DNA from: a bacterium
GTDB taxonomy: Bacteria; Omnitrophota; Gorgyraeia; Zapsychrales; Zapsychraceae
Reading direction: 5' to 3'
DNA: 64,000 nucleotides
Assembly (NCBI GenBank): GCA_030429765.1
Contig: JAUIER010000007.1
Location: 68,372 to 132,371 of the forward strand
Position 1 is the stretch's first letter. The number at the start of each line of letters is the position of its first letter. The position numbers and the translations under genes are program-made. Positions 3,915-58,167 of this stretch are shown here, one piece after another. The notes below the pieces were generated by a model. That model was not told where the DNA came from, ran no database searches, and worked only from the letters and a program-made list of their open reading frames with translations.

Positions 3915-4857
3915 TCACCTCTCCGGCGACAACTTCCTCGGGCGTTTCCACCGGCTCGCGTGTCAGGCTTTTATAGATAATCGTGATCCATTTGTCGGTA
4001 TTGAGAAATCCCTTCCCCCACCGTTCGACGATCTCCGGATCCAACCCATCTTCCTGAGCCTCTTCCAACGATTTACCGTCTGCAACCGCCTCGGCAACCG
4101 TCTCACGTGAAAGTTTGAGCATCTCATGAAAGTCGGCCAGGTCTTGCCACTCGGCTAACGGCCCGTGGCCGGGAATAATCTTGGCGTCGGGATCGACGAG
4201 CGTCATCAGTTCCGCGACATTGGCGATGTACGCGTCGACATCACCGCCGGATTCCAGATCGATAAACGGATACATCCCGTTAAAGAACAAATCGCCTAAA
4301 TGGACCACATTCTCTTCCACAAAGAAGATCACGCTGTCGCCATCCGTGTGGCCGCCCGGAAAATGGAAAACCATCAGTTCATCACCGTTAAAGTGCACGG
4401 ACACCGATTCTTCATACGTAATGACCGGTAACGCGACCGCCGGACTGGGCTCCACGACCCGGTCAAAAAATTTCATTTCCTGACCGGCTGCCATACGTAG
4501 CCGGACATTATCATGCGCGATAATCGTCGCCTTGGCGCCGAAGTGCTCGTTGCCGCCCGTATGGTCCCCGTGCCAATGCGTGTTCAGGACATACCGGATG
4601 CGGTCCGATCCCAATTCAGCAATCGCCGCCTCAATCTTTTCAGATAACGGCGCGAACTGATCATCGATCATCAACACACCGTCCGCCCCCACGGACAATC
4701 CGATATTTCCTCCCGATCCGGTCAGCATATAGACCGACTTGGATAATTTCTGGACCTTGATCTCAACATCGGCGTGATCGGGTTCCGCCTGCACGGACGC
4801 AGCCAGACTGACGCACAAGGTTAAGATCCAAAGACATACAAATTTACGCATGATCAT
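3907..4857 (-). CDS. Secreted MBL-fold metallo-hydrolase
   Basis: Signal peptide; HWHGDHTGG (HxHxDH) zinc motif; GHG and later His/Asp ligands. Confidence 0.75.
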   Translation of the reverse strand: MIMRKFVCLWILTLCVSLAASVQAEPDHADVEIKVQKLSKSVYMLTGSGGNIGLSVGADGVLMIDDQFAPLSEKIEAAIAELGSDRIRYVLNTHWHGDHTGGNEHFGAKATIIAHDNVRLRMAAGQEMKFFDRVVEPSPAVALPVITYEESVSVHFNGDELMVFHFPGGHTDGDSVIFFVEENVVHLGDLFFNGMYPFIDLESGGDVDAYIANVAELMTLVDPDAKIIPGHGPLAEWQDLADFHEMLKLSRETVAEAVADGKSLEEAQEDGLDPEIVERWGKGFLNTDKWITIIYKSLTREPVETPEEVVAGEVNE

Positions 4858-4959
4858 CTCCTGTTAATGGTGGGCATTAAAGGAGCATTATAGCAAACCC
4901 GTCTGCAATTGGGGATAAATTTTGACGGATCCATGCACGGAAGTATGCCTAAATTTTGT

Positions 4960-6833: not shown

Positions 6834-7382
6834 CTAGCCCTTTGATTTTCCTAAAATTTGACTGACTTTTCCCGCCATCTTGACATACTTCTTGATCGTC
6901 TCCACCGGCATGTTCTCGACCTTGGCGTACCAGCCGGTTGTCGTGTCAAAAAAGCCGATCATCTCGTTCATCTTGGTTTGGGCATAGGCGTCCTGCTTTT
7001 TGCGCTTGAGCTCGTCGTGGGCATGGGTCAGGGTCTCAATCATCGGATCGATCTCCCGTCGTTTCTGCTCATGCACCACGATCTGAAAGACCTCCCACAC
7101 GTCTTTGACACATTCAAAGTGCTTTTTCCGCTCGCCCGGCACCGAGATCACCCGAACAATCCCCCAGCTCTGCAGCTCTTTGAGGCTGCCGCTGACATTG
7201 GAACGGGCCACCTTTAGGGCGACGGTGATATCATCCGCCGTGAGCGGCCGCTCAGTCAGAAACAGCAGGGTGTAGATCTGCGCCTCGGTACGGTTCAATC
7301 CCCAATGCGACAACTTCTCCCCCCAATTCAGGATAAACGCCTCGAGCTCTGGACTTAACATTACTTCATTTTTTTCAGTCAT
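6834..7382 (-). CDS. GbsR/MarR-type winged-helix transcriptional regulator
   Basis: N-terminal HTH region LSPELEAFILNWGEKLSHWGLNRTEAQIYTLLFL...SNVSGSLKELQSWGIV typical of the GbsR family. Confidence 0.6.
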   Translation of the reverse strand: MTEKNEVMLSPELEAFILNWGEKLSHWGLNRTEAQIYTLLFLTERPLTADDITVALKVARSNVSGSLKELQSWGIVRVISVPGERKKHFECVKDVWEVFQIVVHEQKRREIDPMIETLTHAHDELKRKKQDAYAQTKMNEMIGFFDTTTGWYAKVENMPVETIKKYVKMAGKVSQILGKSKG

Positions 7383-7400
7383 GACAGAATTATATGTAAT

Positions 7401-7670
7401 TTATAGGGAATTGTCAACCTCAATCTGCTCACCCGAAGGACGCTCATAATATTCCATAGCTCTATCCAATTCTTTGGACACAGAACTTAAAACTGGAACA
7501 ACCAAAACCACTGAGACTAATAGTAATGATCTTTTGACGCCTTTGCGAAGCGGATACAAAGCCTGCGCGATGGCGACAAATATTACACTAAATGTAACCG
7601 CTGCTGAAGCATATCCCAAGGCGTAGGCGGTCGATTCTCCTTCATATCTCCCTTCCGCAAGCTTCATCCC
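7401..7670 (-). CDS. Small membrane protein (start trimmed)
   Basis: ORF 7401..7937 has an Arg-rich, out-of-character N-extension; likely real start MKLAEGRYEGEST... with two TM helices. Confidence 0.3.
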   Translation of the reverse strand, partial: GMKLAEGRYEGESTAYALGYASAAVTFSVIFVAIAQALYPLRKGVKRSLLLVSVVLVVPVLSSVSKELDRAMEYYERPSGEQIEVDNSL

Positions 7671-12302: not shown

Positions 12303-12329
12303 GGAGTCGCTATGCTTCAAAGCGACTCC
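12303..12329 (-). terminator. Perfect 9-bp stem/9-nt loop hairpin directly downstream of CDS 12339..12932 (no U-tract)
   Basis: GGAGTCGCT atgcttcaa AGCGACTCC read from sequence. Confidence 0.3.
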
Positions 12330-27893: not shown

Positions 27894-27975
27894 AAATCGT
27901 TTGGGTATGGCAAAAAAATAACGCCCTACGGTTGTTCTCGGTTATGAGAACAGCCATAGGGCGTTGGTGTTGATC

Positions 27976-29307: not shown

Positions 29308-29388
29308 AGGATCAGTATACCACAACAGGCCACAGCCGTCCCCCCATGTCTGGGAAAAACGGCTGCCGCTTGCTGTACGATGAATCGA

Positions 29389-31919: not shown

Positions 31920-31990
31920 AGAAAAGGACAGCCTCCATTTTAGTACAAAAACGGAAGGCTGTCCTCTGTTTTGATCCGTGAATGATCTGA

Positions 31991-50061: not shown

Positions 50062-52197
50062 TCACATATAAAGTTTTCGAAATTCCGCAATCCCCCGGCG
50101 GTCACCGATAATCGTCAACCGGTCACCGGCCTGCAAAATCTTTTCACCTTTGGGAACAATCGGCTTGCCGTCCCGATTGATAATGGCGATCAGCGACTCT
50201 TCCGGCATTTGCACGTCTTTGATACGCTGTTCAACAAGTTTGGCCGATTTACCTGACATCGACAGCCGTATCGTGACAAAACTTTCATCGCGCAACAACA
50301 CCTCCTTGAGGCGCTGATCATTCTCGGCCGACATCCATTCGTCCATAAAGCCGTCATCATCAACACGACCGGCGATCTTGGCGAGTATTCGCAAATGCTG
50401 CTGGGGATTTTCCTCGGGACTCACCAGAAAGAATATCGCCTTGATGTCTTCATCCGACGGCTTGTGCTGCCCCCAAAAATCTTTTCCCAGATCCGTCTTT
50501 AAGCCTTGCTTCGCGCGGACCAACAGCACCACCGGTTCAATCAAATGATGCAGACGCATATGCGGCAACGCGACACCGTGGGACACCGGCGTACCGCCGA
50601 CCTTGGTCCCGTCGAGAAATTCTTTTTCAATCTGCTCTTCGGGATGCGACAATGTCGCCGAAAGCATGAACGAGGCCTCGCGGATCACCTCATCAAACCC
50701 TACCTTCTCGGAAAGATCGATGGTCTGCGCCCGCGCGATGATTTCCTCGAACGGATCTTTTTCGCGCAATCCCTTCTCTTTGAGGATTCCACGCAGCTCG
50801 GTCTCCAGGCCTTCATGACGCCGTTTGCCTAGCCGTTCAAAGACGTGAAAGATCGCGCCGCCCCGTTCCACCTTGGGATAGGCATAATAGAAAAACCATA
50901 ATGCGCCGATCGCGATCAGTCCGCCGCTGAATAACGTCGGCATAATGCCCATTTCCACGATCAGCCAGAACGGTGATAAGATTCCCAGGATCGGCAGCCA
51001 CGGATACATCGGCGAACGAAATCCCGGATCATACGCCTCGATATGACTCTCGCGCATGATGATGACTGCCAGACAGCAAAACGCGAAGACCAGCAGCTGA
51101 AACGCGCTGGCCAATTTGGCAATCTTGAGCGGATTTAAGAACAGGATAATCGCGATGATACAAACGACTGTAAAGACCACACTGATCGTCGGAATACCCG
51201 AGCGATTGATACGGCGGAAAACCCGCGGGATCAAATGATCACGGCTCATCGCCAACGGATAGCGCGACGCGCTCATAATGCCGGCATTGGTCATCGATGA
51301 AAAGGCAAACACCGCGGCAATCGTCACACAAATCTTACCCCAGGCGCCGACCATTCGATCGGCGGCAATGGCCACGGGTGTCAGACTACTACCCAATTCT
51401 TTGACCGGCACCACACCAACCATCACATACGTCCCGACGATGTAAATAACCAGCGCCGTGGCAAACGCCAGCAGCATTCCCAGCGTCAAATTGCGTTCAG
51501 GGTCATGAACCTCTTCCGCCACGCTGGTGACCTTGGTGATCCCGGCGTAACTCACATACACCATCCCGGCGGTCGCCATAATTGACGTTCCACCGGCATC
51601 AAAAAAGTTCTGGAAATGATCCGTGTTGACATGAAACACGCCGGTTGAGATGAATCCACCCAGCAGCAACAAGATTCCAGCCACCATCAACACCTGGATA
51701 AACCCGGCCTCCTTGGCCCCGCGCATATTCACGACACCGAACAGGATCGCAAATCCCACGGCCAACGGGATCATCAAATCACCCGAAACAAAAAGATTGA
51801 GATACGCCCCCATACCAATCAGGGCAAATGCGGTTTTGAGAATGAGCGATAACCACGTCCCGAATCCGCCGATGGTACCGATCAACGGCCCCATACTGCG
51901 GTCGAGAAAATAATACGCGCCGCCCGATCGGGGCATGGCCGTGGCAAGTTCAATCATACAGAACATCGCGGGGATCAACGGAATCGCCGCGATGATATAG
52001 CTGAGTATCATCGCCGGACCGGCCTGCTTGGCCGCCAACCCGGGCAGTAAAAAAAATCCGGCACTCAAGGTTGTACCGGTCGCGATAGCATATACGTTTA
52101 AGAGCGAGAGTTCTTTTTTGAGTTTTTTAGAATCGGTTCGCTTATCCATGCTTCCCGGTCTGCGCGTTGACAGACAAACTATTTCATGATTTGACAA
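50062..52197 (-). CDS. APC-family amino-acid permease fused to PTS EIIA(Ntr)-type and TrkA_C domains
   Basis: 12-TM APC core; C-terminal GTPVSHGVALPHMRL (EIIA type 2 phospho-His region) and IINRDGKPIVPKGEKILQAGDRLTIIG (TrkA_C); start may be the internal Met at 52149. Confidence 0.65.
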   Translation of the reverse strand: MSNHEIVCLSTRRPGSMDKRTDSKKLKKELSLLNVYAIATGTTLSAGFFLLPGLAAKQAGPAMILSYIIAAIPLIPAMFCMIELATAMPRSGGAYYFLDRSMGPLIGTIGGFGTWLSLILKTAFALIGMGAYLNLFVSGDLMIPLAVGFAILFGVVNMRGAKEAGFIQVLMVAGILLLLGGFISTGVFHVNTDHFQNFFDAGGTSIMATAGMVYVSYAGITKVTSVAEEVHDPERNLTLGMLLAFATALVIYIVGTYVMVGVVPVKELGSSLTPVAIAADRMVGAWGKICVTIAAVFAFSSMTNAGIMSASRYPLAMSRDHLIPRVFRRINRSGIPTISVVFTVVCIIAIILFLNPLKIAKLASAFQLLVFAFCCLAVIIMRESHIEAYDPGFRSPMYPWLPILGILSPFWLIVEMGIMPTLFSGGLIAIGALWFFYYAYPKVERGGAIFHVFERLGKRRHEGLETELRGILKEKGLREKDPFEEIIARAQTIDLSEKVGFDEVIREASFMLSATLSHPEEQIEKEFLDGTKVGGTPVSHGVALPHMRLHHLIEPVVLLVRAKQGLKTDLGKDFWGQHKPSDEDIKAIFFLVSPEENPQQHLRILAKIAGRVDDDGFMDEWMSAENDQRLKEVLLRDESFVTIRLSMSGKSAKLVEQRIKDVQMPEESLIAIINRDGKPIVPKGEKILQAGDRLTIIGDRRGIAEFRKLYM

Positions 52198-53656: not shown

Positions 53657-54700
53657 TTATAAGCTCATCGCGGCGTCCATCTGCCGCTCCAGCACCATTT
53701 TTTCCAGACATTCGATCCACAATGGATGGTCATTGAGGCTTTCCACGAGGTCCAGCGTCTCGCCGCCATGCTCCACAAAGAGCTCATGGTAGGTCTCACC
53801 GATCTCCACCGTGGTTTCCAGGCAATCCGCCACAAATGACGGCGAAAAGGCCAGAATCCGCTTCTTACCCTCCCCGGCCAGCCGCTCAATCTCGGCATCC
53901 GTGTACGGTTTGATCCACGGGTCCTTACCCAACCGGGATTGGAATGACACCGTATAATCCTTAGAATCAATGCCTAGCGCATCTGCCAAAACCCTTGTGG
54001 TCTGATAACACTGGGCCCGGTAACAATAGCGATTTTTGTCGTGAAACACCGAACAGCATTTGTCTGACAGCTGACAGTAACCGCTGGCCGATGATTTACG
54101 GATCTGCCGCTCCGGCAGACCGTGATAGGTAAACAGATAGTGATCATACGATCCCTGATCCATATACTTTTGACCGATGACTTTAAAGGCCTCAATAAAC
54201 GGCGGATAATCCGGGAACTGACTGACCATATCCAGCCTTGGAAAGGTTTGCCAGGCCTTGACCTCCTCCATGACTTTCTCAATGGTCGACCCCGTCGACG
54301 CGGACGCGTACTGCGGGTACAATGGAACCACGATCAAATCTTTAAGCCCGAGGCCATGAAATTCTTTGAGCGCGTCCCGGATACTGGGTGATTGATAGCG
54401 CATTCCCAACACCACTTTGAATCCGTCACCCAATTTCTGCTGAAGGAGCTCCGTAATACGCTGGCCATGCAGCAGCAACGGTGAACCTTTCTCGGTCCAC
54501 AACTTTTTGTATTCTTCCGACGAACTGCGCGAGCGAAACGGCGCGATGATCAGATTGATCAGCAAAAATCGCTGCCAATACGGGATATCGATGACGCGCC
54601 CGTCCATCAGGAATTCACGCAGATACTTGCGGACATCCGGGACATTCGGACTGTCCGGCGTTCCGAGATTAATGAGAAATACACCTGTGTGTGGTTTCAT
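53657..54700 (-). CDS. hemH: Ferrochelatase
   Basis: GVFLINLGTPDSP N-terminus; size and conserved core. Confidence 0.9.
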   Translation of the reverse strand: MKPHTGVFLINLGTPDSPNVPDVRKYLREFLMDGRVIDIPYWQRFLLINLIIAPFRSRSSSEEYKKLWTEKGSPLLLHGQRITELLQQKLGDGFKVVLGMRYQSPSIRDALKEFHGLGLKDLIVVPLYPQYASASTGSTIEKVMEEVKAWQTFPRLDMVSQFPDYPPFIEAFKVIGQKYMDQGSYDHYLFTYHGLPERQIRKSSASGYCQLSDKCCSVFHDKNRYCYRAQCYQTTRVLADALGIDSKDYTVSFQSRLGKDPWIKPYTDAEIERLAGEGKKRILAFSPSFVADCLETTVEIGETYHELFVEHGGETLDLVESLNDHPLWIECLEKMVLERQMDAAMSL

Positions 54701-54718
54701 AACGATTATTTTGCTGGG

Positions 54719-55765
54719 TTATGATTTGAGTTTGGCGACGAATTCGGCGATCTTGAGGACCAGTTGCTGCGTGTCCCCCCATCCCAGACATGGGTCGGTG
54801 ATCGATTTACCGTAAATCCCGCCGTCGACCGGCTGATTGCCTTCTTCCAGATAGCTCTCTATCATGAATCCCTTGACCATCTTGTTGAGCATATCGGAGC
54901 GTTCCATGCTCTGCAGGACTTCCATCGCCACACGCGGCTGCTCGCTGAAAATTTTGCCGCAATTGGCATGACTGACATCGACGATGATCGCCGGATTTTT
55001 AAAGTTCTTGGCGAGGTACATCTCGGTAAATTTGGTGATGTCCTCGTAGTGAAAATTTGGGATGTTCTGTCCGAACTGATTAAACGCCCCGCGCAGAATA
55101 CTGTGCGCGTATGGATTGCCGGACGTCTTGGCCTCCCAGCCTTTGTAGATAAATGTATGCGGTGCCTGGGCGGCCTGAATGGAATTCAACAGGACATTCA
55201 GGTCCCCGCTCGTCGGGTTTTTGAGTCCGATCGGGATATCCAGTCCGCTGACCGTCAGCCGGTGCTGCTGATTCTCGACGGAGCGCGCGCCGATCGCGAC
55301 ATACGTCAGCAAATCTTCGAGATAGGGATAGTTTTCCGGGTACAGCATTTCATCCGCGGCGGACAGATGCGATTCCTTAAGTACCCGAATATGCATGCGG
55401 CGGATCGCCTTGAGCCCGTCGACAATATGCGGCTCACCCTGCGGATTGGGCTGATGCGCCATGCCCTTGTATCCTTCACCGGTGGTGCGCGGTTTGTTGG
55501 TGTACACCCGTGGGATCAGTAACAGCTGGTCCTTGACCTGATCATTGAGCTTGGCCAGCCGTTGGATATATTCACAAACGGCGTCCTCGTTGTCCGCCGA
55601 ACACGGCCCGATCACCAGGATAAATTTTTGACTGGCCCCGGTAAAGACATCGATCACCTGCTGATCGCGGCGTTCCTTGATGATCTTTAAATCGTCGCTC
55701 AGCGGCATCTCGCCGAGAATTTCGTCAACGGTCGGTATTTTTCGGATGTACTCAAAACTCATCAT
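54719..55765 (-). CDS. aroG: 3-deoxy-7-phosphoheptulonate (DAHP) synthase, class I
   Basis: VIGPCS, KPRTT, IVDVSHANC, KSITDPCLGW align with E. coli AroG. Confidence 0.85.
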   Translation of the reverse strand: MMSFEYIRKIPTVDEILGEMPLSDDLKIIKERRDQQVIDVFTGASQKFILVIGPCSADNEDAVCEYIQRLAKLNDQVKDQLLLIPRVYTNKPRTTGEGYKGMAHQPNPQGEPHIVDGLKAIRRMHIRVLKESHLSAADEMLYPENYPYLEDLLTYVAIGARSVENQQHRLTVSGLDIPIGLKNPTSGDLNVLLNSIQAAQAPHTFIYKGWEAKTSGNPYAHSILRGAFNQFGQNIPNFHYEDITKFTEMYLAKNFKNPAIIVDVSHANCGKIFSEQPRVAMEVLQSMERSDMLNKMVKGFMIESYLEEGNQPVDGGIYGKSITDPCLGWGDTQQLVLKIAEFVAKLKS

Positions 55766-55950
55766 TCGCTCCTAACTATCTGACTATTAAATCTTTAGAT
55801 CGCCCGGTCCCGGGTGAAATTCCCGAGATTATACCATCAAAGCCAAGATACGGCAATCGCAAAATCCTATGGATCAATCACCCCGATGAGACTGATACGA
55901 AAGACATTTTAACGAAAAAATATAAACTAGATATACGTTCATATGTGCTG

Positions 55951-55979
55951 TTGAAATTTATACCAATCGTAATTATACT
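55951..55979 (+). promoter_or_regulatory. Near-consensus sigma70 promoter (TTGAAA-17 nt-TATACT) with no downstream CDS
   Basis: Read from sequence; spacer counted as 17 nt. Confidence 0.4.
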
Positions 55980-55985
55980 TAAAGT

Positions 55986-56050
55986 AACTTCGTTAGAGAA
56001 AGATTGAGTTACAGGATCAAGGCCAAGTGATTTTTGCTTGGCCTTTTTTC
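55986..56050 (+). ncRNA. Candidate about 65-nt sRNA: 5' stem-loop (GTAACT...AGTTAC) plus intrinsic terminator
   Basis: Promoter 7 nt upstream; terminator GGCCAAG tgatttttg CTTGGCC TTTTTT at 56021..56049; no ORF. Confidence 0.3.
56021..56049 (+). terminator. Rho-independent terminator hairpin with U6 tract
   Basis: 7-bp GC-rich stem, 9-nt loop, TTTTTT. Confidence 0.55.
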
Positions 56051-56081
56051 ATGGCCAAATCTGAAGAGAAATTTACCGAAG

Positions 56082-56510
56082 CTAATCTACCTCCTTCATA
56101 TTTAGCCGATCAGTCAAAGATGAATACGGAGAGCGCGTAACATCAACCTTGCAAACAACTTGATTCCATTTAGAGTGACCTACATCATAATTTACGACAA
56201 TCGAACCGAATTCTCCGAAATTTATATTGATTGTGTCGTTGCGAAACATATGATTAGGCACATATGTAACATAGCTTACATTCCATTTGTCACATTGTTT
56301 ATGCAGTGTGGCGAGGATCAAGTCGTGGGTTTCATACCCCGGGAGAATAATCTGTCGAGTAACTTCGCGCCCGCCCTTAAATCGAATATATTCCAATTCC
56401 CCAATTTCTACACTCGACAATTCGTCATGATAATTCCGTACAGCACAATACAATGCGATCGTTGCCAAAATGCATACGGAGAGAATCAATGAATAACAAA
56501 CCTTCCTCAT
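56082..56510 (-). CDS. Secreted hypothetical protein (low-GC ORFan)
   Basis: Signal peptide MRKVCYSLILSVCILATIALYCAV; about 40% GC; AT-rich flanks. Confidence 0.3.
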   Translation of the reverse strand: MRKVCYSLILSVCILATIALYCAVRNYHDELSSVEIGELEYIRFKGGREVTRQIILPGYETHDLILATLHKQCDKWNVSYVTYVPNHMFRNDTININFGEFGSIVVNYDVGHSKWNQVVCKVDVTRSPYSSLTDRLNMKEVD

Positions 56511-56672
56511 TTAATTTTATTCCGTTCCTGCTATAAAATACTATCTTAGAAAATCAATTACTTTGCGGTTATCTATTGCCACACATTGCGAATAGTGCCC
56601 CTATTGTACCCGCCGACTACCACATAAAGTAGGATCCATGCCGTACTCTTAATAGCAGGTCACCAGATACTG

Positions 56673-56945
56673 TCAAAAATACCACCACAGCAACAGAGTG
56701 CCGTAAATTATGGCCAGGGATATTGCGAACATCGGCCAGGTTGTTTCATCGATGTAGTTTTCCGAAACGCGATTGACCGGGCCTTTAGCGAGTAAACCCA
56801 CCACGACCATCAAGACAGGCGGTACAAAGAAAATAATCGTAAGCCCCAGGGCCACCGAAACAAACCACCCACCACAGATTCCAATCACAACGGATAAGGC
56901 CTGAAATGCCGAACGGGTATTACGTACATATCTATTTTTAGACAT
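56673..56945 (-). CDS. Small two/three-TM membrane protein
   Basis: Last gene of the resB...GDPD operon; hydrophobic. Confidence 0.35.
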   Translation of the reverse strand: MSKNRYVRNTRSAFQALSVVIGICGGWFVSVALGLTIIFFVPPVLMVVVGLLAKGPVNRVSENYIDETTWPMFAISLAIIYGTLLLWWYF

Positions 56946-56986
56946 CGAAACCTCCCGTAAAATAATTAGCTGATCTAACGCGGCTG

Positions 56987-57676
56987 TCACAACCGATCCG
57001 GAAAATCTGAAAAGATGCCGTCGACGCCGTAGTCCTTGAGACGTTTGATGTCTTCCAGCCGGTTGACGGTCCAGACGTAGACCTTCATGCCGGCCTTCTT
57101 CGCCTGTTCGATAATACGTGGATTGGCCAGATGCGCATTCAGATGCACGGAATGCGCACCGATCTTTCGGGCAAAATCCACAAAACCGAACGGCCGATAG
57201 GCCAACAGCGCGCCGATGCGGATATTGGGATCGATCTTTGCTAATTTTTTCAGTTTATGACGGGTAAAGGCCGAGACAATAAAGTGCTCATACGTCCAGC
57301 CGTGTTCTTTGATGTAGTGCCGGATGACCTTGGCGACCGGTCCGATGGTAAACTTGCCCTTGATCTCAATATTCACATTCGCGCGTTTGTCGACGAGGTC
57401 CAATACTTCGGTCAATAAAGGGATCCGCTGTCCGCCGCCGGCATCCAGGCTTTTGAGATACTCCAGAGATTTCTGCCGCACATAACCATGTCCATTGGTA
57501 GTGCGTTCGAGCTTGGCATCATGGATCACCACCACCTCACCGGTCAGGCAGGTATGCACATCGACCTCGATCATATCAACGCCCATGTCCAGGGCCGTCT
57601 GGATCGATAGCAATGTATTTTCCGGCGCGTGTCCCTTGGCGCCGCGGTGTCCGATTTTAAAGAAGGGTATGTTCAC
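56987..57676 (-). CDS. Glycerophosphodiester phosphodiesterase
   Basis: FKIGHRGAKGHAPENTLLSIQTALDMGVDMIEVDVH catalytic His/Glu/Asp motif. Confidence 0.85.
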   Translation of the reverse strand: MNIPFFKIGHRGAKGHAPENTLLSIQTALDMGVDMIEVDVHTCLTGEVVVIHDAKLERTTNGHGYVRQKSLEYLKSLDAGGGQRIPLLTEVLDLVDKRANVNIEIKGKFTIGPVAKVIRHYIKEHGWTYEHFIVSAFTRHKLKKLAKIDPNIRIGALLAYRPFGFVDFARKIGAHSVHLNAHLANPRIIEQAKKAGMKVYVWTVNRLEDIKRLKDYGVDGIFSDFPDRL

Positions 57677-58167
57677 GGGGTGGCAGGTTCAGTGGCGGTC
57701 TCGACGACTTCAGCCGGATGACCTTTCATCATCCATTCATACATCCCGCCGTTGTAATCATACACGTTTTTATAACCGATGCTCATCAATTTAGTCGCGG
57801 CGTAGTGGCTCATCTTGCACTTGCTGCTGGCGCAGTAAACAATGACCACCTCATCTTTATTGGGTAGGAGCGCCTGAATATCTTCGTAATTGGCGTAGGC
57901 GACAAACAACGACTTCGCCCCCTTGATATGTCCCCGGTTGTAACTGGATTCAGGCCGGACATCGACGAGTGTGTGTTTGAGTTTCTGATCGGTCCGGATC
58001 TTCATAAATTCATCATACGTCAGAGATTCCACCTTAAATTCCGGCGTGCCCGGCTCTTCTTCGGAACAACCGATATCGACGTCACAATCCTCCTCGGCCA
58101 ACACCGCCGATGTAAATGAAAGCACTATCATCGGCATCACCAATAGCCACAAATATTTTTTCATCAT
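57673..58167 (-). CDS. Secreted rhodanese-domain sulfurtransferase
   Basis: Signal peptide; DVRPESSYNRGHIKGA...VYCASSKCKMS active-site loop. Confidence 0.7.
   Translation of the reverse strand: MMKKYLWLLVMPMIVLSFTSAVLAEEDCDVDIGCSEEEPGTPEFKVESLTYDEFMKIRTDQKLKHTLVDVRPESSYNRGHIKGAKSLFVAYANYEDIQALLPNKDEVVIVYCASSKCKMSHYAATKLMSIGYKNVYDYNGGMYEWMMKGHPAEVVETATEPATP

Follow-up and report, generated by a model that had tools for sequence, protein, structure and literature searches.

An AT-rich gap beside aroG in a contig assigned to the Omnitrophota raises the question of whether a promoter-like element, two hairpins and a T-tract, which follow one another on the plus strand, form a gene for a small RNA (sRNA). 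The gap lies in a stretch of 64,000 nt (the window), and all positions refer to this window unless another locus is named. An earlier note had proposed a stand-alone sRNA gene at this place. The parts of the candidate unit and the features around it are compiled in Table 1. Relatives of the aroG product were mostly source-named Candidatus Omnitrophica or Omnitrophota. In the genome collection no species representative closer than 64% was found, and exact-protein look-ups with aroG (as a 348-aa ORF and as the 347-aa P0001), the 90-aa gene and GDPD gave no match.

Table 1. Candidate transcription unit and neighbouring features in the window.
Feature	Positions	Strand	Basis or remark
Candidate -35 hexamer TTGAAA	55951-55956	+	sequence match
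Candidate -10 hexamer TATACT, 17-nt spacer, without TG extension	55974-55979	+	sequence match
5' hairpin GUAACUU/GAGUUAC, purine-rich loop AGAGAAAGA	55984-56012	+	fold
Terminator hairpin	56019-56045	+	9 Watson-Crick pairs, extended to 12 bp
T6 (terminator U-tract)	56044-56049	+	abuts the stem
Predicted transcript, ~64 nt, A55986 to end of U-tract	55986-56049	+	start deduced from the -10 hexamer
GDPD	56987-57676	-	
90-aa predicted membrane protein, second insertion gene	56673-56945	-	
142-aa gene, convergent with the candidate	56082-56510	-	stop codon 36 nt from the hairpin
aroG	54719-55765	-	divergent from the candidate
aroG promoter TTGCCG-17-(TG)TATAAT	55828-55856	-	type conserved in five relatives
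Lineage-specific insertion, ~1.1 kb, GDPD stop codon to aroG promoter	~55857-56986		

The promoter TTGAAA-17-TATACT on which the proposal had been built is present at 55951-55979 (+). It agrees with the sigma-70 consensus at 10 of 12 positions, has a spacer within the usual 16-18 nt and was the top-ranked match of a 3-kb scan. Compared with the promoter type of aroG in this lineage, the -35 hexamer and the spacer fit, but the TG extension is absent and the -10 hexamer is imperfect (not TATAAT). A start 7 nt past the -10 hexamer falls on A55986, and the predicted RNA would then be 64 nt long (55986-56049), close to the ~65 nt originally suggested, with its 5' end placed by the -10 hexamer. The inverted repeat GTAACT (55984-55989)/AGTTAC (56007-56012) with a loop of 17 nt, which had been described as a 5' hairpin with a 6-bp stem, exists in the DNA. 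With a start at A55986, however, G55984 and T55985 are outside the RNA, so that the 5' stem retains 5 outer pairs and not 6. The 5' hairpin is thus marginal with the expected start site.

The arms of the terminator hairpin, AAGGCCAAG (56019-56027) and CTTGGCCTT (56037-56045), enclose nine nucleotides. Two G-U pairs and one A-U pair, which form on the plus strand only, lengthen the stem to 12 bp, and the first two T of the T6 are able to pair with A56019-A56020. Judged by eye, the linker ACAGGAUCA is not U-rich, and the terminator tail consists of U6 only. Hfq-dependent sRNAs are characterised by a long U tail and a U-rich or ARN motif beside it. The predicted 64-nt RNA folds with -20.3 kcal/mol (z = -3.3). 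The transcript had been described as free of ORFs, and indeed none of at least 30 codons lies within it. A 37-codon GTG ORF (56027-56140) merely starts in the terminator hairpin, and the sole start-to-stop ORF found inside the transcript by eye is an 8-codon TTG ORF at 56004. An imperfect 13-nt tandem repeat, TTTTTGCTTGGCC/TTTTTTCATGGCC, was observed at 56031-56056 (+), where it covers not only the loop but also the 3' arm and the T6. A local duplication may have given rise to the U-tract, and an alternative fold is conceivable in which GGCCAAG pairs with CATGGCC. The repeat is perhaps due to chance, since its TRF score of 38 is lower than the default threshold of 50.

The terminator was scored with the d'Aubenton-Carafa formula for sites of hairpin plus tail. 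The candidate obtained d = +16.2 on the plus strand vs. -37.4 on the minus strand, and on the plus strand it combines a stem of 10-12 bp, a 3-nt loop and T6. Its hairpin has a z-score of -3.98, and none of 200 shuffled sequences folded as well. As plus-strand RNA, the hairpin is more stable (-16.8 kcal/mol) than as minus-strand RNA (-13.4 kcal/mol, z = -3.95), and for the 5' hairpin the values were -7.0 kcal/mol (z = -2.55) on the plus strand vs. -1.9 kcal/mol (z = -0.46) on the minus strand. Three of the four gene-end hairpins native to the window likewise fold better on the transcribed strand.

When the stem and the tail had to be strictly adjacent, d > 5 was reached at just three sites in the window (both strands, 128 kb), all of them intergenic, i.e., at the candidate and at the 3' ends of two minus-strand genes (27963-27922 and 31964-31926). 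Both native sites carry their U-tracts on the gene's own (minus) strand. A first census, which took perfect stems only and missed 27922-27963, was superseded by these later counts. When a spacer of 0-2 nt was allowed, seven sites had d > 5, three of them intergenic and four in or across coding sequence, and simple arithmetic from these relaxed counts gives a chance of ~2% for such a site in this gap. When the 316-nt gap was simulated 600 times with a Markov model, d > 5 occurred in 0.3% of the simulated sequences and a value of 16.2 in none. The intrinsic terminator with U6 claimed in the earlier note was therefore upheld. On sequence grounds, we conclude that the hairpin and T6 probably arose in evolution to terminate plus-strand transcription, be it at this locus or in a donor genome.

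Several other hairpins of the window are recorded here in their own right. Of the native terminators at 27921-27964 (-) and 31926-31964 (-), one is of textbook form (dG about -30, U7, d = 23-37), and the other is weaker (d = 8.9). Strong gene-end hairpins without a U-tract are found at 12303-12329 (d = -28) and 29331-29367 (d = -49), and many 3' ends in this genome may therefore not need canonical intrinsic termination. A terminator-like hairpin with U8 at 52058-52079 (-), with d = 25.7 at a 1-nt spacer, lies in sense orientation within an amino-acid permease gene (50062-52149) and falls in the conserved first transmembrane region of the permease. It is probably a coincidence of the coding sequence; an intragenic attenuator is a conceivable alternative.

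For the promoter, the chance level is higher. The local chance rate for a match of this quality (10/12 with a 17-nt spacer) is 4-8%. At local composition, the probability of a match of at least 10/12 on the same strand is 0.078 for the 159 nt upstream of the hairpin, and it is 0.036 if the match is confined to 20-80 nt upstream. In the 128 kb of both strands, 15 matches of at least 10/12 were counted. Five of the seven on the minus strand sit directly upstream of minus-strand genes, which indicates that the consensus is predictive in this organism, and seven of the eight on the plus strand fall within genes. The evidence for the promoter thus appears weaker than that for the terminator. A perfect promoter (12/12, TTGACA-17-TATAAT) was seen at 7389-7417 (-). 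Its end is only 7 nt away from the start codon of the gene at 6834-7382, the mRNA of which would accordingly have no leader or almost none.

On the minus strand, the genes and elements are arranged in the order GDPD, 90-aa gene, 142-aa gene, hairpin, aroG promoter, aroG, hemH and hemA, and aroG is divergent from the unit, as had been noted. The -35 hexamers of the aroG promoter and of the candidate stand back to back, 95 bp apart. A plus-strand gene was found neither upstream of the unit, in agreement with the earlier statement that there is nothing to terminate, nor between 56050 and the window's end. The whole window shows an extreme strand bias: a greedy ORF map places about 64 of 69 ORFs of at least 90 aa on the minus strand, and several of those on the plus strand probably just shadow genes of the opposite strand.

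Comparison with related loci delimited the insertion. In the relative loci L084-L091, whose aroG products are 77-84% identical, GDPD is followed by aroG within ~110 bp. The insertion is lineage-specific, since GDPD in these relatives directly abuts the conserved aroG promoter. Its AT-rich core extends over ~55870-56670. The gap 55860-56081 has a GC content of 34% vs. a mean of 44% for the other intergenic regions, and the 142-aa gene has a GC3 of 0.41 vs. 0.62-0.69 in the neighbouring genes. By its composition and its distribution, the insertion is in all likelihood foreign DNA that was acquired horizontally and that carries the candidate unit. No mobility gene (e.g., an integrase), tRNA or convincing flanking repeat was found in or at the insertion. 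ARAGORN detected no tRNA- or tmRNA-like gene or fragment at 54000-58000, and a tRNA or tmRNA fragment as integration site was rejected on this ground. In the relatives, no terminator was found between GDPD and aroG.

The aroG promoter, TTGC..-17-TGnTATAAT with an AAnTTTCA-like motif, occurs in the window (55810-55856 (-)) and in five relatives (L083 at 4875-4920, L084, L085, L090 and L091). The AAnTTTCA-like motif is partly palindromic, lies near the start site (GAAATTTC in L084) and may be an operator. In the window, the putative 5' UTR of aroG comprises ~55 nt and contains a CCCGG-GA-CCGGG hairpin (55790-55830). L083, the closest relative by aroG (87%), has a different upstream neighbourhood. 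There, two copies of a ~75-nt repeat (~4585-4665 and ~4805-4880) were observed. They contain GTTCGTTTAC...GTAAACGAAC palindromes as well as a CATGAAATTGATCGATGC...GATCAATTCATGACCGC segment that is conserved, and may represent a small repeat element.

The gene that converges with the candidate had been described as a low-GC ORFan. The low GC content is borne out by its GC3, but the ORFan label had to be given up, since an exhaustive phmmer search with the 142-aa protein retrieved 17 remote relatives of 100-160 aa. They have G47, W76, TYAP, N97, N107 and W..Q in common, and many have lipobox-like N-termini. No Pfam family was found across the 15-member family. The AlphaFold model of the 142-aa protein, which is confident (pLDDT 81), combines a membrane anchor with an alpha/beta domain, and a PDB fold search with this model gave just a weak lipoprotein match and nothing informative. 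The 142-aa protein and its relatives form an undescribed family of small proteins with signal or lipobox N-termini. Family members were inspected in their loci (L096, 1-3423; L094 and L095, 3001-3390). One of the relatives directly follows a 2190-aa Rhs/YD-shell toxin, the ~125-aa C-terminal domain of which starts past a DPYGL motif, and overlaps the stop codon of the toxin. Another is part of a small-gene array beside IS21 and an integrase. Since a relative takes the immunity position of an Rhs system and no toxin is near the copy in the window, the 142-aa gene is plausibly an orphan Rhs-type immunity gene. A hairpin like that of the candidate was not found downstream of the homologues.

Searches for relatives of the unit itself were negative throughout. 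The Rfam scan that the earlier note had called for gave no overlapping match in Rfam 15 over 55951-56050 even at E <= 10, so that membership in a curated RNA family was rejected. Besides the window, just two Logan contigs were found to contain the unit; they are 100% identical across the region and belong to the same strain, and the relatives with 77-87% identical aroG lack the whole insertion. A conserved sRNA gene was rejected for this reason; the earlier note had named lack of conservation together with an inactive promoter as refuting its proposal, and the first of these applies, since the hairpins are not conserved in related genomes. When the insertion was compared by BLAST with 91 loci and with the window, only short matches at chance level were obtained, a covariance model built from the element (R1) matched nothing in the window or in 18 loci, and BLAST against phages and plasmids gave no match. 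Two patterns had 0 matches in the metagenome scans. Three patterns scanned against viral sequences gave either 0 matches or two generic terminators, which have only a 7-bp stem in common with the candidate and were rejected as relatives. Thus, no homologue, paralogue or covariation of the unit was found in any collection searched. A REP or MITE repeat was rejected because the unit is single-copy in the window and in the loci, and an integron attC site because, by inspection, the nearest core-like words (CTCTAAC, GTTAGAG and GTTACTT) break the RYYYAAC...GTTRRRY consensus. Target prediction, also suggested earlier, did not help: a duplex search over all translation-start regions of the window was not significant, with 90% of shuffled RNAs doing as well, and no target in the window was better than for these. 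A literature search on sRNAs of Omnitrophota yielded nothing relevant. The proposal of an sRNA gene was thus confirmed in its anatomy and in the plus-only terminator, while the step to an sRNA gained no support from Rfam, homologues, covariation or targets. Since it is found nowhere else, the unit stays an ordinary small-RNA candidate.

Three other explanations were weighed against transcription from the candidate promoter. The hairpin may be a relic, namely the terminator of a lost donor gene that was convergent to the 142-aa gene, with nothing transcribed into it and with a promoter match due to chance. The unit is an unconserved singleton in the most AT-rich part of the foreign insertion (34% GC, next to a gene with a GC3 of 0.41), where promoter matches of at least 10/12 occur by chance at 4-8%, and seven of the eight such matches on the plus strand are inside genes. 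This explanation requires, however, that a well-placed promoter with a 17-nt spacer arose by this 4-8% coincidence and that the plus-strand bias of the 5' hairpin is also chance. Moreover, no remnant of an ORF is seen before the hairpin (upstream of it, plus-strand ORFs of at least 30 codons reach no further than 55912), the hairpin and T6 are intact, and no donor was found by which the transfer could be dated. We consider a relic rather unlikely.

The hairpin could also serve the minus strand. It would then stabilise the 3' end of the 142-aa mRNA or terminate this mRNA weakly with the help of a factor, and would shield the aroG promoter from read-through coming from upstream, with the T6 being incidental or left over from a bidirectional terminator. 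It is located 36 nt past the stop codon of the 142-aa gene, the usual place of a terminator, in a neighbourhood of exclusively minus-strand genes; as minus-strand RNA it still reaches -13.4 kcal/mol (z = -3.95), and the native gene-end hairpins at 12303-12329 and 29331-29367 also lack U-tracts. Against such a role, the minus-strand tail UUGAUCCUGU yields d = -37, chance would hardly place a T6 directly against the stem on the wrong side, and the two G-U pairs lengthen the stem on the plus strand only. In addition, the native terminators with d > 5 (27963-27922 and 31964-31926) have their U-tracts on the strand of the gene. A role on the minus strand is therefore unlikely in our view. A plus-strand leader or attenuator, or a small-protein gene such as the 37-codon GTG ORF or one starting at the in-frame ATG 56051, is highly improbable. 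An AGGA stands 10 nt upstream of GTG 56027, and the ATG directly follows the T6, but ATG 56051 has no Shine-Dalgarno sequence, and the ORF would have to cross the terminator and runs into the 3' end of the 142-aa gene, for which real homologues exist. A cis-regulatory leader, attenuator or riboswitch was rejected because no plus-strand gene lies downstream up to the end of the window.

The explanation we tentatively prefer, at slightly under an even chance, is a self-contained plus-strand transcription unit that gives rise to an RNA of ~64 nt. The elements, their strand specificity, their non-randomness and their foreign context are shown by the sequence analysis, whereas promoter activity, the start site and any regulatory role are inferred. 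A sigma-70-type promoter (55951-55979) would start the RNA near A55986, and the intrinsic terminator (56019-56049) would release it as a ~64-nt RNA that does not code for protein. The promoter is counted for the unit because it matches at 10/12, has the optimal 17-nt spacer and is positioned such that a 64-nt RNA results. The unit would ride on the horizontally acquired AT-rich insertion, convergent with the 142-aa gene. Since the hairpin is a poor terminator on the minus strand, transcripts of GDPD and of the insertion genes probably read through towards aroG, and, as the relatives have no terminator between GDPD and aroG, read-through there is plausibly ancestral. The small RNA would be perfectly complementary to this minus-strand read-through, which makes an action in cis most likely: antisense pairing or convergent transcription might limit or process the read-through between the insertion and the aroG promoter. 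As a second possibility, the RNA might act in trans by pairing via the exposed purine-rich AGAGAAAGA/ACAGGAUCA region.

A further-reaching version of this explanation, which we regard as improbable, is that the insertion constitutes a mobile orphan-immunity cassette that brings along a convergent gene for an antisense RNA. By this RNA, expression of the 142-aa gene would be controlled or insulated, and transcription would be kept from crossing between the cassette and the host aroG promoter. If this is true, Omnitrophota, a phylum without described sRNAs, would possess an immunity cassette regulated by RNA. At present, the unit is a single prediction that lacks conservation, and its type is very common. 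Should the RNA be made, it would rank among the first candidate small regulatory RNAs of the uncultured and poorly understood Omnitrophota, and foreign DNA would have brought its own promoter-terminator unit beside the core biosynthetic gene aroG.

In its architecture, the candidate resembles sRNA genes from screens in E. coli. In 2001-2002, the combination of an orphan promoter and a Rho-independent terminator in intergenic regions reportedly led to stand-alone sRNA genes there. Genes of this type have a sigma-70-like promoter, a non-coding body of 50-400 nt and a GC-rich hairpin with a U-tract, and no ORF is associated with them. The E. coli sRNAs were backed by conservation and Northern blots, whereas the candidate is a sequence-based prediction and an unconserved singleton in an uncultured Omnitrophota-like genome.

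Bidirectional intrinsic terminators occur between convergent genes, and in the candidate one hairpin likewise lies between two convergent units. Since its U-tract is one-sided and d on the minus strand is -37, the candidate is not a symmetric A-tract/U-tract terminator. The unrelated viral locus L092, which has the same stem, is a symmetric terminator and differs from the candidate in this respect.

In the Bacillus type I toxin-antitoxin pairs txpA/RatA and bsrG/SR4, a convergent antisense RNA overlaps the 3' end of the partner mRNA. The candidate, too, would be a small RNA convergent with a protein gene, with the terminator hairpin between them, and would show complementarity to the 3' UTR of its partner or to the read-through. 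The toxins of these pairs are peptides of at most 60 aa, whereas the partner here is a membrane-anchored protein of 142 aa with an immunity-like context. The candidate RNA does not overlap the coding sequence, and the overlap with the mRNA is a prediction. A type I antitoxin was rejected because the partner is a folded alpha/beta protein of 142 aa and because the coding sequence is not overlapped.

sRNAs are also encoded on acquired islands and prophages, as are the island-encoded sRNAs of Salmonella and DicF of E. coli. The candidate has no sequence or Rfam relationship to them, and its insertion comprises just ~1.1 kb without a mobility gene, but like them it is located on AT-rich, recently acquired DNA beside cargo genes.
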